Made by a program: the position numbers and the translations under genes
Origin: Patescibacteria group bacterium
Lineage (GTDB): Bacteria; Patescibacteriota; Patescibacteriia; PEXW01
Direction: 5' to 3'
Assembly (NCBI GenBank): GCA_041671325.1
Contig: JBAZBR010000005.1
Coordinates: forward strand, 14,184 to 78,183
DNA length: 64,000 nucleotides
Notes under the pieces: model-generated
Told to the model about the DNA's origin: nothing
What the model saw: only the letters and a program-made list of their open reading frames with translations
Databases searched by the model: none
Shown: in pieces, positions 3,119-58,390 of the stretch
How positions within the stretch are numbered: the first letter of the stretch is position 1
How the letters are laid out: every line of letters starts with the position of its first letter

Positions 3119-3886
3119 TTAGTTATTATGGGTATCCAAAATTTCCCGGGCTAATTTTTCATAGGCTTTGGCGCCTTTGGACTTAGGGTCAAAATGCCTA
3201 ATGGGTTTGCCGTAACTTGGCGCCTCGGCCAAGCGGACATTCCTCGGGATTACGGTCCGAAAAATCTTGTCGGGAAAATACTGGTAAATCTCCTGGAAAA
3301 CCGCCTGGGACAATTTATTCCGGTCATCAAACATGGTCATGACCACGCCCAAGATGTTCAAGCCAGGTTGCAAATTTTCCCTGACCAAATTAATAGTCTG
3401 CACTAATTGGCCCAAGCCTTCCAAGGCGTAATACTCGGTCTGGACGGGAATTAGAATTTCTTCCGCTGCCACTAAACCGTTAATGGTTAACAAACCCAAA
3501 GAAGGCGGACAATCAATGATGATGTAATCATATTCATTCCTTATTTCTGACATACTTTCGCGCAAGCGGTGTTCGCGCCGCTCCAATGGCACTAGTTCCA
3601 CATTGGCCCCGGCCAAATCCAAGGTTGCCGGCGCTACGCGCAAGCCATCAACTGTACTGGGATGAATAATTTCCCGAAACGTCTTTACTCCCACTAAGGC
3701 ATGATAAACCCCATGAGGTAAATTTTGGTGGTCCAAACCAATGCCGGAAGAAGCATTGCCCTGCGGATCCACGTCAATCAGTAAAACAAACTTGCCCAAA
3801 GCCGCCAGTTCAGCAGCCAGATTTACGGCCGTGGTGGTTTTGCCTACCCCGCCTTTTTGGTTAACAACAGCAATAACGTGTGACAT
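3119..3886 (-). CDS. parA: Chromosome partitioning ATPase ParA/Soj
   Basis: Deviant Walker A KGGVGKTT. The track ORF runs to 3946, but the likely start is the Met of MSHVIAVVNQKGGVGKT at 3886. Confidence 0.9.
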   Translation of the reverse strand: MSHVIAVVNQKGGVGKTTTAVNLAAELAALGKFVLLIDVDPQGNASSGIGLDHQNLPHGVYHALVGVKTFREIIHPSTVDGLRVAPATLDLAGANVELVPLERREHRLRESMSEIRNEYDYIIIDCPPSLGLLTINGLVAAEEILIPVQTEYYALEGLGQLVQTINLVRENLQPGLNILGVVMTMFDDRNKLSQAVFQEIYQYFPDKIFRTVIPRNVRLAEAPSYGKPIRHFDPKSKGAKAYEKLAREILDTHNN

Positions 3887-3964
3887 ATTTGTGTCTTCAT
3901 CATACCAAAAAAGCCCAGACAATACGAAAAAAGGGCGCCAAACCAAGCCTGGTTTAAAACGCCC

Positions 3965-5266
3965 TTATGAATGTGCATTGCGAATCTCTCGATTCCTTTC
4001 CATCAGCCTTCTTAATTTGCAATAGGCAATCCCAGTTATTTTAACTAATGCGCAGAGCGCATATTCCTTGCCCGCAAAAATGCCTGGCCGGTTTTGGGTT
4101 TCTAGGTTCGGGTTATAAGGACTTACATCGAACAAACCGTAATAGCGGCAGAGATTTTCTTGCTGTGAGGTTTCCAAGGCCAGAATGGCCTGACGCAAGC
4201 CGCTCATCCAGAAAGCCATCTGCTCTTGATCCAGTTTCGAAAAAGCTTTAGCCGGAGTTTTTACTGAGCGCTGGGATAGCTCTGCTAGCACTGGATCAAA
4301 CTTTTTATTCCTGGGCATGAGTATTTGGTCTTGCCGGATGTTCGTCGATTTCTTAACAGATTTACCCGGATTCTTTAGCTTCAGCTTTTCTACCGACCCA
4401 ACAATTTCCAGGTCTTTAGTCAGTTTTTGGCGAAGCTTATAGAGAGCTTGCTTTTTGATTTGTCTGACTCTTTCTTTGGTTATATTAAACCTTTCCCCAA
4501 TTTGCTCAAGGAATAAAGGTTTTTCGTCATTCAAACCAAAAGACAAGGTTAAAATTTCGGCTTCCCGAGGAGATAAGATTTCCAGTATTCGCCAGATGTC
4601 TTCTTTTTTCAACTCTTGGCGGGTTTCAGGATCTGGCAAAGACTCTGTCTGATCTCCCAAGTTTTCAATCAAGCTTTCGCCATTCTCTAATGGCTCGTCC
4701 AAAGACGTATAGCCTGGTTTTATGCCTAATGCCTCTTCCACCTTATCGAAAGATAAACCAAGCGCTTCGGCGATCCTTTCGGTAGATGCCTGACTAGCCC
4801 AAACTTGATTAAGCTGCTTAGTGGTTTTCTTAATTCGGCTGATTAAAGCCACCTTACTCATTGGCAAAGCCACGATCCCGCCTGATTCAGCTACGGCCTG
4901 CAAAATTGCCTGCTTAATCCACCAATCCGCGTAAGAGATGAACCTAAAGCCCCGTTCAGGATCAAAGCGCTTAGCAGCCGTAATCAAGCCAAGATTGCCT
5001 TCGTTTATCAAATCCACTAATGATAAGCCGCGGCCTTGATAAAGACTGGCAACCGAAACGACAAATTTTAAATTGGCGGTAATCAGCCTGTCTAAAGCTT
5101 TTTTATCGCCATTCCTAAACCGTCTGGCTAGATTAATTTCCTGCTGTTGGGTCAGCAATGGGGTTGAACCGATTTCTTGCAAATAAATTTCCAGCGAAGA
5201 ATTCGACTCTTTCCCGCTGAAAGCCAAGCCGCGAGACGTCTTCAAAGCTCTCATGCTTCTAATCAC
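3965..5266 (-). CDS. Sigma-70 family RNA polymerase sigma factor with an ~150-aa C-terminal extension
   Basis: Region 2 (NLKFVVSVASLY...DLINEGNLGLITAAKRFDPERGFRFISYADWWIKQAI) and region 4 (ITKERVRQIKKQALYKLR) are present. About 150 residues follow region 4 with no recognisable motif. Confidence 0.8.
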   Translation of the reverse strand: MIRSMRALKTSRGLAFSGKESNSSLEIYLQEIGSTPLLTQQQEINLARRFRNGDKKALDRLITANLKFVVSVASLYQGRGLSLVDLINEGNLGLITAAKRFDPERGFRFISYADWWIKQAILQAVAESGGIVALPMSKVALISRIKKTTKQLNQVWASQASTERIAEALGLSFDKVEEALGIKPGYTSLDEPLENGESLIENLGDQTESLPDPETRQELKKEDIWRILEILSPREAEILTLSFGLNDEKPLFLEQIGERFNITKERVRQIKKQALYKLRQKLTKDLEIVGSVEKLKLKNPGKSVKKSTNIRQDQILMPRNKKFDPVLAELSQRSVKTPAKAFSKLDQEQMAFWMSGLRQAILALETSQQENLCRYYGLFDVSPYNPNLETQNRPGIFAGKEYALCALVKITGIAYCKLRRLMERNREIRNAHS

Positions 5267-49140: not shown

Positions 49141-49380
49141 CGCGTGGAGAAAGTGAAGCTACTCTTATTTCCATTCTTTGGAGGTCCCCAGAAATTTGGC
49201 ACGGACTGAGCAGAGCGAAGGAGTACGAATTTCTGGGGTAAAGCGAGGCTTCTCGGTTGACCCCACAAGGCAGGAACGCAGCGTAGCGAGCACGGGCTTG
49301 TGGGGAAAGCGGCACGTTTGTGGAACCCGAAGTAGCCTCGCGAATGCGGGGATACGAAGGGTGAAACAAACGATGACGCG
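49141..49380. repeat. GC-rich structured repeat (R1) in the 3' trailer of tRNA-Asn
   Basis: Contains GGTCCCCAGAAAT (49183-49195), its inverted partner AATTTCTGGGG, and the core TGGGGTAAAGCGAGGCTTC (49234-49252). The same core occurs at 55475-55493 and 58303-58321. Confidence 0.55.
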
Positions 49381-49719
49381 TGGCTCCGCGAGTCGGACTC
49401 GGACCGACAACCTACCGGTTACATTTATCCTTATGTTTCCATAAAGCATGGACTATATCTTTACCCGTCTTCGTTGCTTCGCAACTTCGTCGGGCAGGCC
49501 CGACTAAAATTACAAAGATTCAAAGGTGGGGGTACTCCGGTATCTAGTCTCTACGGTGCCCCTGTACCGATTAATGATACAAGGTTCCCACGGTATTAGC
49601 TTATCCAAATTATTCTTGGATTTAGCTTTCACCGTTATCCCGGAATGTTCATCCCAACGTTACCGTCGGGAGCTGCGTCAAATCCACAGCCGGTTGCTCT
49701 ACCATTGAGCTATCGCGGA
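49381..49719 (-). tRNA. tRNA-Asn (anticodon GUU) interrupted by a group I intron; exons 49686-49719 and 49381-49421
   Basis: Joined exons give a 75-nt cloverleaf with acceptor TCCGCGA/TCGCGGA, D-arm GCTCAATGGTAGAGC, anticodon stem ACCGG/CCGGT, loop CUGU|UAA, T-arm GTCGG-TCCGAGT-CCGAC, and CCA encoded. Confidence 0.75.
49422..49685 (-). ncRNA. Group I self-splicing intron (IC3-like) in the tRNA-Asn anticodon loop
   Basis: 264 nt. The 5' exon ends in U. The internal guide GCAGC at intron nt 10-14 pairs with exon GCUGU, giving a U-G wobble at the splice site. The intron ends in G. The core GUAGAGACUAGAUACCGGAGUACCCCCACCU resembles the P7/P3 core of the Azoarcus and Anabaena tRNA introns (GUAGAGACUAGACGGCACCCACCU), as recalled. 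Confidence 0.7.
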
Positions 49720-49750
49720 ACAATAATATTAATTATTTTGTATGGAAATA

Positions 49751-50062
49751 TTACTTACTTTTGCTTTTTTTGGCAAGTTTACTGTGTATTTCTCTATGGC
49801 AATTTGCGCAAACTAACTGGCATTTATCTAATTCGTTTTTGACCTTTTGCCAACTCCGAGTATAACCTTTTTCGGATATACCAAACTTTTTTTCATGAAT
49901 ATGGTGAAACTCTAAAGCTTCTTGGCATTTAGCATACCCACATATTTCGCATTTCGAACCTTTTAACTCCCTTGCTAGGTTTCTTACTTTGATCCTTCGT
50001 TTCTTGACTGCTTCAATCAAGTACTTTCTTCGATCAATGTAGTTGCGCTTTTCTTTCGGCAT
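49751..50062 (-). CDS. HNH endonuclease (103 aa)
   Basis: CEICGY...LEFHHI...CANCHREIH, the Cys4 zinc and HNH catalytic motif. Its stop lies 31 nt upstream of the intron-containing tRNA on the same strand. Confidence 0.75.
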   Translation of the reverse strand: MPKEKRNYIDRRKYLIEAVKKRRIKVRNLARELKGSKCEICGYAKCQEALEFHHIHEKKFGISEKGYTRSWQKVKNELDKCQLVCANCHREIHSKLAKKSKSK

Positions 50063-50067
50063 AAACC

Positions 50068-51282
50068 CTAATAGTCTTTCAATTTCTTCATGACCTCATG
50101 CTCTTTGATTCGTTCCAAAGCTTTGGCTTCAATTTGGCGAATGCGTTCCCGGGTCACGCCGAATTCTTGGCCGACTTCTTCCAAAGTGTGAGCCACCCCG
50201 TCATGCAAGCCAAAGCGCATTTCTAGAATTTTCTGCTCCCGCGGGCTTAAGCCTTCTAAAATGTCTTTTACATGATCTTTTAGCAATTGCATGGCCGCGG
50301 CCCGGTCTGGCGAAATCGTCTTTTGGTCTTCGATAAAATCGCCCAGGGTTGAATCCTCGTCATCTTCGCCGACTGAAGTTTCCAAAGAAACCGTCTCTTG
50401 GGAAATTTTGATGATGTGATGGATCTTTTCCAAAGGCTCGCCCATTTCCGCGGCAATTTCTTCAGGCATGGGTTCCCGGCCCAAGTCCTGGATTAACTGC
50501 CGTTCAATCTGCTGGAACTTATTTATGGTTTCTACCATGTGAACTGGGATACGGATGGTGCGGGATTGGTCAGCCAAAGCCCGGGTGATGGCTTGGCGGA
50601 TCCACCAGGTGGCATAAGTGGAAAATTTATAGCCTTTACGGTAGTCAAATTTTTCCACGGCCCGGAACAAGCCAATGTTGCCTTCCTGGATCAAGTCCAA
50701 AAGCGATAAAGAGCGGCCCGTAAATTTTTTGGCAATGGAAACCACCAAGCGCAAGTTCGCTTCAACTAATTTCTTTTCCGCTTCCACATCCCCGGCTTCT
50801 TTCCTTTTGGCCAAGGTAACTTCTTCGCCTGGCCGAAGCAACGGCACCTTGCCAATTTCCCGCAAATACATCTGGATTGAGTCGCCGGAAATGTCTGATA
50901 AATCCAAACGGCTTAAATCCAAGCTGGCCTTCTCTTTTTCCTTGGCTTTTTTTTCTGGAACTTTCGGTGCCTCAAAACCGCCAAGGATGTTAGTGTTTTC
51001 CACCAACCGCAAGCCTAATAAATCCAGCTTAGTCAAAAAATCCTCGTATTCCGGCAAATAATCTTCCAAATCTGGAAAAGCGTATAAAATTTCGCCTTCA
51101 GTCACAAAACCCCTTTGTTTGGCTTTTTTGGTCATTAAGTCAGCCGAATCTATAGGAAAAACAAACTTGCGCCGGGGTTCCTTTTTTTCAACTGCTTTTG
51201 CTTTTTGGCGAATTTTAGATTTCTTTTTGGCCCTTTTTACAGCTGGCTTTTTAGTGATTTTACTTTTCTTCTTTTTTGGCAT
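50068..51282 (-). CDS. rpoD: Primary RNA polymerase sigma factor (sigma-70/RpoD)
   Basis: Lys-rich N-terminus, region 1.2/2 ([53 protein letters not shown]), region 3, and region 4 ([24 protein letters not shown]). Classical dnaG-rpoD arrangement. Confidence 0.9.
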
Positions 51283-55378: not shown

Positions 55379-55480
55379 AAAATTGATGGGTTAGTTTTGA
55401 ATTGGTTCTATTGATGAATACCATTTATTAATAGAGATTATTTCAGAGGGCATCAAATTTTCTTTTGGAAAATTTGGGGA

Positions 55481-55768
55481 AAGCGAGGCTTCGTGCGAAG
55501 GACGTAGCGAAGTTGCGCATGCGACTACGCGAAGCTCTGAGCGCGAAACGAGCTGGCGGAAGGGGCGACCCGCCTACGTTTAACTTCTGCGGGCAGGGAT
55601 TCGTCCATAAATTTGTTAATTATTTCATACCTCACGAATGAGGAGCGGACGAACGGAGTGAGGAGCACGCATTCGTGAGGAAATGCGAGGCTTCGTGCGA
55701 AGGGCGTAGCGGAGTTGCGGATGCGACTACGCGAAGCTCTGAGCGCGAAACGAGCTGGCGGAAGGGGA
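55481..55768. repeat. Tandem 85-bp direct repeat (2 copies, 4 mismatches, 118-bp spacer); each copy ends with the 12-nt 3' terminus of tRNA-Ser
   Basis: Copy a is 55481-55565 and copy b is 55684-55768, both read directly. Each ends ...GAGCTGGCGGAAGGGG, which is the reverse complement of the tRNA-Ser 3' end CCCCTTCCGCCA. Copy b is contiguous with the genuine tRNA. Confidence 0.75.
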
Positions 55769-55845
55769 GAGATTCGAACTCTCGAAAGGCTTTCACCTTT
55801 ACTTGCTTTCCAAGCAAGCGCACTCGACCACTATGCGACCCTTCC
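55756..55845 (-). tRNA. tRNA-Ser (anticodon GGA), class II with long variable arm
   Basis: GGAAGGG acceptor, anticodon stem-loop CTTGC-TTGGAAA-GCAAG, variable arm TAAAGGTGAAAGCCTTT, T-loop GTTCGAATC, CCA encoded. Confidence 0.85.
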
Positions 55846-58254: not shown

Positions 58255-58390
58255 TCGAGTTCCGTGGGTGCCGCATTTGCGTCTCCCACTCCACCCTTTG
58301 GGCGAAGCCTCGCTTTCCCCACGAACGCGTGCTCGTCCCGCAGGCGCGGGACTGTGCGCCACGTTCGCGGGGTCCCCAGAAATCTTGATT
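58255..58390. repeat. GC-rich structured repeat (R3) between the hypothetical gene and ppsA
   Basis: CGAAGCCTCGCTTTCCCCA (58303-58321) and GGTCCCCAGAAAT (58371-58383). Bracketed by GCTTTC..CGCCTGACCA direct repeats (58218-58252 and 58391-58425); the second lies inside the ppsA 3' end. Confidence 0.55.

Follow-up and report, generated by a model that had tools for sequence, protein, structure and literature searches.

A free-standing HNH endonuclease gene next to an intron-split tRNA-Asn gene in a Patescibacteria group bacterium: a candidate intron-homing cassette

A 64,000-nucleotide (nt) stretch of a Patescibacteria group bacterium genome (GenBank assembly GCA_041671325.1, contig JBAZBR010000005.1, forward-strand positions 14,184 to 78,183), here called the window, carries a tRNA-Asn(GUU) gene that is split by a 264-nt insertion and preceded, at a distance of 31 nt, by a gene for an HNH endonuclease of 103 amino acids (aa). 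The initial annotation of this locus read the insertion as a group I intron devoid of an open reading frame (ORF) and likened the arrangement to free-standing homing endonucleases that mobilize nearby introns. The question raised by the locus is whether an intron with no endonuclease of its own can be moved by the endonuclease encoded beside it. Based on comparison with related loci, our answer is that the free-standing homing endonuclease gene and the ORF-less intron probably form a cassette that was acquired by gene conversion, replacing an intron-free tRNA-Asn gene. Compared to the outset, there are now much firmer grounds for linking the HNH gene to the intron: the HNH family was found to be encoded inside tRNA-Asn introns at the same position, 35/36, and relatives differ in the state of the locus.

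Group I introns at position 35/36 have been described previously in tRNA-Asn, tRNA-Asp and tRNA-Tyr genes of Patescibacteria (Nakagawa et al., mSystems 2026, PMC13011429), and the remark of the initial annotation that tRNA introns had been reported in this phylum was correct. In that survey, 22 intron-bearing tRNA genes were found in 95 complete Patescibacteria genomes (15 of the 22 in tRNA-Asn(GUU), all at 35/36), and precise self-splicing was demonstrated in vitro for one tRNA-Asn and one tRNA-Asp intron. Because this class has already been described with experimental splicing, the intron of the window is not new when taken alone. HNH endonucleases (PF01844) were found to be encoded in four tRNA-Asn introns of more than 500 nt, endonuclease-bearing introns of subgroup IA at 35/36 were confined to Patescibacteria in the complete genomes surveyed, and intron-free and intron-bearing alleles of a tRNA gene were rarely found together in one genome. 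Endonuclease genes were sought only inside the introns, with the conclusion that most tRNA introns are without means to move, and flanking or free-standing endonuclease genes are not mentioned (PMC13011429). The next RpoD relatives of the window are from Parcubacteria and Kerfeldbacteria, in keeping with a host from the same phylum.

The split tRNA-Asn gene and its group I intron

All features of the locus lie on the minus strand of the window. By ARAGORN in its default mode, four other tRNAs were detected in the window and the tRNA-Asn at 49381-49719 was missed. In intron mode (-i), a 75-nt tRNA-Asn(gtt) was called with a 264-nt intron between 'gctgt' and 'taacc', in agreement with the initial joining of 49686-49719 and 49381-49421 into a 75-nt tRNA-Asn with the anticodon loop CUGUUAA. 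The 34-nt 5' exon (49686..49719; TCCGCGATAGCTCAATGGTAGAGCAACCGGCTGT) ends in U35, and the 41-nt 3' exon (49381..49421), delimited by ARAGORN -i and by comparison with relatives, includes an encoded CCA. Once joined, the exons were called as tRNA-Asn even without intron mode, and the spliced tRNA was found to be a regular cloverleaf with a 7-base pair acceptor stem, the loop CUGUUAA and discriminator G73. An intron-free tRNA-Asn in a related locus (L182) was identical to the window exons at 70 of 72 positions, with CTGTTAA uninterrupted and the 5' half identical. A boundary shifted by two bases to 33/34, which is the ARAGORN call for many homologs and would yield tRNA-Thr(UGU), was rejected on the basis of the terminal-G rule (the shifted intron would end in A), the P1 wobble, discriminator G73 and the intron-free twin in L182. 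No second tRNA-Asn was found within the 64-kb window by ARAGORN; a second tRNA-Asn close by was frequent among relatives of the window genome. Should the split gene be the sole copy in its genome, splicing would be essential.

The sole oddity of the cloverleaf is a C at position 55 (49402) of the T-loop TCCGAGT (49397-49403). This position is almost universally occupied by U (pseudouridine 55). The same C55 was present in the intron-free tRNA-Asn of locus L164 and in locus L092 and is thus a trait of the lineage rather than an assembly error.

The 264-nt insertion (49422..49685) is a structurally sound group I intron at position 35/36, as judged by RF00028, ARAGORN and covariation. The search with the Rfam covariance model RF00028 that had been proposed as a check was performed and matched 49429-49744 with 52.3 bits for the whole window and 52.9 bits locally (E-values of 2e-10 and 1.5e-12), compared to a gathering score of 50. 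The score is marginal because P1 and P2 were wrongly placed on an AT-rich hairpin upstream of the tRNA, with the P3-P9 core fitted well; this misplaced 5' part was replaced by a hand-built structure that was checked by covariation. In P1, the exon sequence GCUGU pairs with the internal guide sequence GCAGC (intron nt 10-14; 49672..49676), which was invariant in 8 of 8 aligned introns, and a U35-G wobble is formed at the 5' splice site. The last intron nucleotide is G (49422), and the exon-terminal U, the wobble of the GCAGC/GCUGU pairing and the terminal G, on which the group I reading had partly been based, were all seen in the sequence. No endonuclease-sized ORF was detected inside the 264 nt, consistent with the initial reading, and inspection by eye revealed no convincing P10 between the 3' exon and the 9 nt preceding the guide.

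The guide is followed by a P2 hairpin, CCCGACG-GUAA-CGUUGGG (49653..49670), capped by a GNRA tetraloop and displaying compensatory changes in all 7 of its pairs. The catalytic core, delimited by covariation (49535..49645), comprises P3 around P4, P5/P5a and P6 plus the 5' strand of P7. P3 (49645-49640 with 49540-49535) was 100% paired, with 5 of its 6 pairs covarying, and the P7 pseudoknot (GACUA at 49549-49545 with UAGUC at 49455-49451) was likewise 100% paired. The P8 region (49451..49534) consists of P8 itself (UACCC at 49534-49530 with GGGUA at 49466-49462; 92.5% paired, three covarying pairs), two extra hairpins inside P8, and then J8/7 and the 3' strand of P7. The shortest relatives of the window-type intron are without hairpins between the P3 3' strand and P8. 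The P9 hairpin, CUUUAUG-GAAA-CAUAAGG (49429..49446), was taken from the Rfam alignment, with 75% of its cells paired.

These pairings were examined in an alignment (A3) of the window copy and seven introns of the same sequence type, three of them published (the tRNA-Asn intron of GCA_030583765.1, the tRNA-Tyr intron of GCA_016699995.1 and the tRNA-Asp intron of GCA_023898525.1) and four from fetched loci (L182, L030, L063 and L075). The structure of 56 pairs, spanning P2, P3, P4, P5/P5a, P6, P8, P9 and the P7 pseudoknot, was 89% paired compared to 33-46% when the 3' partners were slid by 1-3 columns, in a set of only eight related sequences and with a structure written from the window copy, itself one of the rows. 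Changes on both sides were found for 31 pairs compared to 7-13 in the slid controls, and none of 500 shuffles matched the observed values. P2, P3, P5, P6 and P8 covary, and P4 and P7 are invariant, as is expected for the catalytic centre. Over alignable columns the window intron was about 83% identical to the ORF-less intron of L182. Taken together, the RF00028 score and the covariation from P2 to P9 confirmed the insertion as a group I intron, and the pairings initially predicted, P3 and P7 among them, were found to hold across the eight introns.

The HNH gene and its family

The HNH gene (49751..50062), assigned by Pfam, PHROG and family alignments, begins 5 nt past the stop codon of rpoD (50068..51282; recognized by its Pfam sigma-70 regions), which is used here as a conserved upstream anchor and is context rather than part of the element. 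A 31-nt AT-rich spacer (49720..49750) separates its stop codon from the 5' end of the tRNA, which lies on the same strand, as initially annotated. The 5-nt gap suggests co-transcription with dnaG-rpoD. A scan for promoters and terminators revealed nothing above chance, and a promoter-like TTGCCA-17-TAATAT at 49776-49748, overlapping the end of the HNH gene, was no commoner than chance.

The match of the protein to PF01844 was marginal (21.7 bits vs a cut-off of 21.4), and PHROG HNH families matched with E-values down to 6e-25. Three intron-encoded HNH genes, translated from the sequences in Table S3 of PMC13011429, were 53-57% identical to the window HNH over the full length, with the CxxC pairs, HH, N and final H kept. 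In two family alignments, C38, C41, H53, H54, C85, N87, C88 and H89 were invariant and H93 invariant or nearly so. The published HNH-bearing introns house the ORF in loop L1, downstream of the 5' splice site and ahead of the guide, and the last codons of this ORF read through the guide into P2. An AlphaFold model of the window HNH (predicted local distance difference test score of 84.7) displayed strands and then a helix around the motif. The top PDB entries of a fold search were Cap5, the HNH domain of Cas9, ZRANB3, Gme HNH and T4 endonuclease VII, every one an HNH domain but a weak match (E of at least 0.05, template modeling score of about 0.4), and a sequence search of PDB returned weak matches to HNH domains of group II intron maturases (E of 0.004) and no close solved relative. 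A full-length copy 93% identical to that of the window was found in another sample. By these comparisons, the window HNH is a free-standing member of the family that lives in tRNA-Asn introns at 35/36.

Relatives of the window HNH are widespread. A protein search returned more than 590 at about 55-70% identity, with names from Patescibacteria, Omnitrophota, WOR-3, Saganbacteria, Elusimicrobiota and Acidobacteriota. In a scan of one genome per species, at least 557 HNH-encoding loci were found, and the best 80 were examined and sorted by ARAGORN intron mode and ORF positions; ARAGORN often labeled HNH-bearing tRNA-Asn loci as tRNA-Thr, as is also reported in PMC13011429. By this approach, the HNH gene was located inside a tRNA-Asn intron in about 68 of the 80 loci, and six were cut by contig ends and left unsorted as to HNH position. 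Free-standing genes upstream of an intron-bearing tRNA-Asn, the layout of the window, were found in Pseudomonadales (L046; gap of 29 nt), in Acidobacteriota (L084; gap of 83 nt) and on a metagenome contig from a separate search (L002; gap of 43 nt), and free-standing genes downstream of such a tRNA-Asn in L009 and L081. In a Saccharibacteria locus (L013) with odd tRNA fragments, an intron-free tRNA-Asn follows the HNH gene after 9 nt. RF00028 reached the gathering score in L002, L046, L084 and L009 and fell below it in L081 (44 bits vs 50). With the viral locus L211 described below, four other loci thus share the window layout, and all four are RF00028-positive. Free-standing and intron-borne HNH copies were intermingled in a neighbor-joining tree, where the window HNH paired weakly with that of L002; although poorly resolved, this tree does not support a single origin of the free-standing state.

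HNH-bearing tRNA-Asn introns (L005-L084) were also found in metagenome-assembled genomes labeled Omnitrophota, Planctomycetia, Nitrospira, Acidobacteriota, Elusimicrobia and Bacteroidota, and in others labeled Ignavibacteriaceae, Gamma- and Deltaproteobacteria, Heliobacteriaceae and Margulisbacteria. As judged from these sequences and labels, the presence of intron-borne HNH genes in many phyla other than Patescibacteria extends the complete-genome survey of PMC13011429. Two of the bacterial loci are unusual in their surroundings. In L002 a 79-aa ORF with a GIY-YIG domain (3714-3953) starts about 50 nt after the tRNA-Asn, which places the intron-bearing tRNA between two endonuclease-like genes. 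In L013 (2792 nt), the HNH gene is preceded by a 5'-exon-like fragment and followed by another tRNA-Asn 3' half, which is interrupted; the locus could be a rearrangement intermediate or a chimeric assembly.

The same family was also found in phages. A scan of viral contigs returned at least 571 HNH relatives, and in the best 80 loci, many of which are near-duplicates such that the counts overstate independence, the genes were free-standing within tRNA gene arrays. The nearest tRNA was tRNA-Asn(GTT) in 59 of the 78 tRNA-bearing loci, where tRNA-Asn accounted for 74 of 529 tRNAs. On the same strand, a tRNA-Asn was found to start within 60 nt of the HNH stop codon, or to overlap it by about 10 nt, in 41 loci, and no intron was called in 38 of these. 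Two viral loci resembled the bacterial ones: L211 has the window layout with an RF00028-positive intron of 206 nt, and L189 has the layout of an intron-borne HNH. Among cultured phages, 344 records carried an HNH relative; two of these phages, Klebsiella phage Muenster and Bacillus phage BCU4, have an annotated tRNA-Asn followed, 64-74 nt on, by a gene labeled 'HNH endonuclease'. The phage and bacterial contexts together indicate that the association is one of the HNH family with tRNA-Asn genes, whether or not an intron is present.

The rpoD-tRNA-Asn junction in related genomes

The gene order dnaG-rpoD-tRNA-Asn is kept in relatives of the window. In four genomes (RpoD 82-88% identical), dnaG-rpoD is followed by an intron-free tRNA-Asn 60-125 nt past the rpoD stop codon, with no HNH gene, and 36 further rpoD ends were retrieved from metagenomes by matching a pattern for the rpoD 3' end. 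At the junction of L164 (RpoD 97% identical over 68 residues), an intron-free tRNA-Asn and no HNH gene were found. In L092 (RpoD 97.6%) and L135 (RpoD 94.8%), the tRNA-Asn has an intron of a different type with an internal HNH gene, the product of which is 58% and 61% identical to that of the window, respectively. The more distant L182 (RpoD 73%) has an intron-free tRNA-Asn and, 67 nt on, a second copy with a 220-nt ORF-less intron of the window type. The HNH gene was absent downstream of rpoD in L085-L088, L164, L116, L121 and L147. At the DNA level, rpoD was 80-82% identical to that of the window in L164, L092 and L135 and 76% identical in L182; the organisms are related at the level of genera or species rather than of strains.

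Past the rpoD stop codon, the window and L164 are no longer homologous until about 130 nt downstream of the tRNA, and thus the HNH gene, both exons and the intron differ as a block from the nearest relatives. The rpoD-tRNA-Asn junction is in at least three different states within a narrow lineage. The window exons were identical at 70 of 72 positions to those of L182, at 63 of 72 to L092 and at 56 of 72 to L164; they do not track the RpoD relationships and look foreign. The higher exon identity to L182 than to the nearest relatives is what co-conversion of flanking sequence would be expected to leave and suggests that it took place.

Tandem tRNA-Asn genes are common in the lineage (L182, L086, L088, L164 and L121). 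In L182, the two tandem copies have identical exons and lie about 20-460 nt past the rpoD stop codon, with no HNH gene, a rare instance of both alleles within a single genome. In L086, L087 and L088 (about 3850-4400), one or two tRNA-Asn-like copies follow the functional tRNA-Asn, with the D-loop, variable region and T-arm broken by GC-rich hairpin inserts of 20-50 nt; these extra copies may be duplicates in decay, or a small mobile element may have inserted into them. L103, identical to the window over 36 residues at the end of RpoD, represents a further state of the junction, with unrelated coding sequence of about 1.1 kb ahead of a tRNA-Asn 5' half. This locus was set aside as uninformative on the HNH gene.

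Three GC-rich hairpins directly adjoin the 3' end of the window tRNA-Asn (49165-49380, minus strand, 216 nt; minimum free energy of -74.9 kcal/mol, z of -5.2 vs shuffles). Their motif, GAAGCCTCGCTTT[AC]CCC, occurs four times in the window compared to 0.04 expected, among them at 55475-55492 (minus strand), 55677-55694 (minus strand) and 58304-58321 (plus strand); two of the copies are just 3' of tRNA-Ser (55756-55845). A stretch homologous to the hairpins follows the tRNA-Asn genes of L164. No Rfam family was matched by 49165-49380, and the hairpins may be a repeated element or a terminator-like family tied to tRNA genes.

A candidate trans-homing cassette, its rivals and known systems

In the mechanism that we consider most likely, trans (collaborative) homing, splicing and mobility would be provided by separate parts of the locus. 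Collaborative homing has reportedly been proposed for cyanophage psbA introns as well. In splicing, the guide GCAGC would pair with the exon end GCUGU, an exogenous G would attack after U35, and the terminal G would then take the G-binding site in P7, such that ligation restores the CUGUUAA loop; self-splicing of the window copy is expected from the in vitro demonstration for its homologs. The HNH enzyme is predicted to nick or cleave tRNA-Asn alleles that lack the intron; in the repair from a donor with the HNH gene, this gene, the 34-nt exon and the intron 65 nt away would be copied together. In the host's own gene the intron would split the presumed target and shield it. While cleavage activity and target site are likewise predictions by analogy, the putative shielding is the weakest point, as the phage copies and L013 adjoin intron-free tRNA-Asn genes, so that protection can arise otherwise, and as the cut site may miss 35/36.

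Several further points weigh against this account. Self-protection needs no intron where the HNH gene adjoins an intron-free tRNA-Asn, and the free-standing HNH pairs with different intron types in the window, L002, L046 and L084, so the endonuclease and the intron may have arrived separately. Gene conversion of an upstream free-standing gene needs upstream homology, which is present within a population and not between distant genomes. Identity in rpoD DNA is only about 80% even for the nearest relatives, and ordinary divergence could partly explain the exons, although four relatives with RpoD identities of 82-97% have nearly the same tRNA-Asn. The HNH tree is a neighbor-joining tree of about 100 residues with low resolution, and the presumed cleavage and splicing of the window copy are extrapolated from homologs and sequence.

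The free-standing position of the HNH gene fits either of two routes, escape from an intron or arrival of a phage-type free-standing gene. By the first route, the core and 3' exon of an intron-bearing first copy of tRNA-Asn would be lost, with the HNH gene remaining before a second copy. L046 has a degenerate 5'-exon-like stretch about 100 nt before its HNH gene (score of 12 vs a shuffled maximum of 11) and L013 a similar piece. By the second route, the layout would have come from phages, where that of the window is the commonest. Upstream of the window HNH no 5'-exon remnant was found (local alignment score of 6 vs a shuffled 95th percentile of 10), and for this reason no choice between the two routes was made.

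The foremost alternative, which we regard as unlikely though worth serious weight, is that a phage-type HNH gene landed beside a tRNA-Asn gene with an unrelated, vertically kept intron, the two elements being independent and the intron not mobilized. Members of the family do lie directly upstream of intron-free tRNA-Asn genes in phage arrays, in the window layout; several intron types are paired with free-standing HNH genes; and L182 has a window-type intron with no HNH gene. By contrast, a conversion that copies an HNH gene 65 nt from the insertion site is expected to bring the intron along, as for MobE and I-TevIII (PMC2790892). In addition, the nearest relatives either lack the exons, intron and HNH gene of the window or carry different ones, which fits a joint replacement better than two events.

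It is also rather improbable that the HNH gene was left behind when an older tRNA-Asn intron, in whose loop L1 it had been encoded, lost its core and 3' exon as a second tRNA-Asn copy took over, in which case the HNH gene would move nothing and its adjacency would be historical. The scatter of free-standing copies in the HNH tree, the 5'-exon-like pieces upstream of the HNH genes in L046 and L013, and the common tandem tRNA-Asn genes as raw material for rearrangement are in line with such an origin. By contrast, the window HNH has no such piece upstream, where the rpoD stop codon is 5 nt away and the best score is below the shuffled level, its catalytic and zinc-binding residues are all intact, and the full-length copy at 93% identity argues against decay. 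Such an origin would, moreover, be compatible with continued activity.

A role of the HNH protein on RNA or for the host, in tRNA processing or as an anticodon nuclease of sorts, rather than in DNA homing is very improbable: in phages and bacteria alike the family keeps closely to a single tRNA species, but most of its members lie inside loops of mobile introns, are 55-70% identical across many phyla and phages, are present or absent among close relatives in the manner of selfish DNA, and find their best fold and family matches among DNA nucleases. Least credible of all is that the insertion is no functional intron and the tRNA-Asn a pseudogene for which another gene supplies tRNA-Asn, as the near-threshold RF00028 score, the unusual C55 and a tRNA-Asn search that covers the 64-kb window alone would allow, given the exact boundaries, an intact ribozyme core with helices kept by compensatory changes, C55 in the intron-free tRNA-Asn of relatives, in vitro splicing of homologous introns at 35/36 (PMC13011429) and no other tRNA-Asn within the window.

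The account of the free-standing endonuclease and ORF-less intron as a cassette may be placed, tentatively, in a wider frame, in which the HNH family is found in every stage of a proposed mobile-intron life cycle and the window represents an intermediate stage in a bacterial chromosome. As a free-standing gene, the HNH gene would adjoin either a target with no intron (phage tRNA arrays) or one protected by an intron (the window, L002, L046, L084 and L211), and in a further stage it would be housed in intron loop L1 (most bacterial loci). If true, the intron would serve as immunity against the adjoining enzyme and hitch-hike on its gene conversion, and the rpoD-tRNA-Asn junction would be a hot spot invaded repeatedly by different endonuclease/intron pairs. 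The family offers a natural series for testing how endonuclease genes enter introns, and it links phage tRNA arrays with bacterial tRNA introns in many phyla.

Among known systems, the intron itself is closest to the published 35/36 class, with which it shares host tRNA, site, guide GCAGC, length range, core sequence and phylum; the closest published copies, alignable throughout, are the three that entered our alignment (GCA_030583765.1 tRNA-Asn, GCA_016699995.1 tRNA-Tyr and GCA_023898525.1 tRNA-Asp). As in the window, ARAGORN and other annotation tools fail to find genes of this class or mislabel them, and the estimated completeness of small genomes is distorted as a result. The published HNH genes sit inside introns, whereas that of the window is outside, 31 nt upstream of the tRNA. 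All 35/36 introns in our alignment and in Table 1 of PMC13011429 are in GUN-anticodon tRNAs (Asn, Asp and Tyr) with the guide GCAGC, and pairing of the guide with CUGU of the loop accounts for the choice of site. On these grounds tRNA-His(GUG) would be a possible fourth host; L032 and L047 carry the (unverified) ARAGORN label tRNA-His.

The IC3 introns of Azoarcus tRNA-Ile and cyanobacterial tRNA-Leu, to which the initial annotation had likened the core, resemble the window intron in being compact, self-splicing and located in anticodon loops of bacterial tRNAs. A J6/7-P7 core of the form GUAGAGACUAGA is common to the window, Azoarcus and cyanobacterial introns, where for Azoarcus we take the core to be of this form. 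The Nostoc tRNA-Leu intron has GCAGAGACUCGA at this position (Table S4, PMC13011429). The insertion sites of the IC3 introns are 33/34, 34/35 and 36/37 vs 35/36 in the window, and the Patescibacteria tRNA introns were assigned nearly all to subgroup IA and none to IC (PMC13011429). Thus, the likeness holds for the core motif, which is common to many group I introns, but does not extend to the published subgroup.

For the arrangement as a whole, the nearest counterpart is T4 MobE, a free-standing HNH endonuclease that mobilizes in trans the adjacent nrdB intron, in which I-TevIII is defunct (Wilson and Edgell 2009, PMC2790892). In both cases a free-standing HNH gene adjoins a gene whose group I intron is without a working endonuclease, and MobE is promoterless and co-transcribed with its upstream gene, as the 5-nt gap after rpoD suggests for the window. 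The likeness is one of arrangement, and the T4 case concerns a phage protein-coding gene rather than a bacterial chromosomal tRNA gene; nicking and intron co-mobility, demonstrated for T4, are predicted for the window. T4 SegB is located within a tRNA cluster and cuts preferentially in the tRNA-Asn gene (PMC2330249). Like the phage relatives of the window HNH, it is a free-standing endonuclease gene between tRNA genes, and SegB-type genes target tRNA gene DNA and spread with flanking tRNA genes; by contrast, SegB is of a different nuclease family and no intron is involved. In the literature searched, no member of the window HNH family has been characterized, and trans homing of bacterial chromosomal tRNA introns by a free-standing endonuclease of the same family has not been described, while no element of the window system is mechanistically unprecedented. 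The free-standing HNH gene beside an ORF-less intron at a polymorphic locus suggests that some 'immobile' tRNA introns are moved in trans and that surveys of tRNA introns should inspect flanking genes. Taken alone, the window intron is one more example of the class published in 2026; the adjoining HNH gene changes how that class is read.

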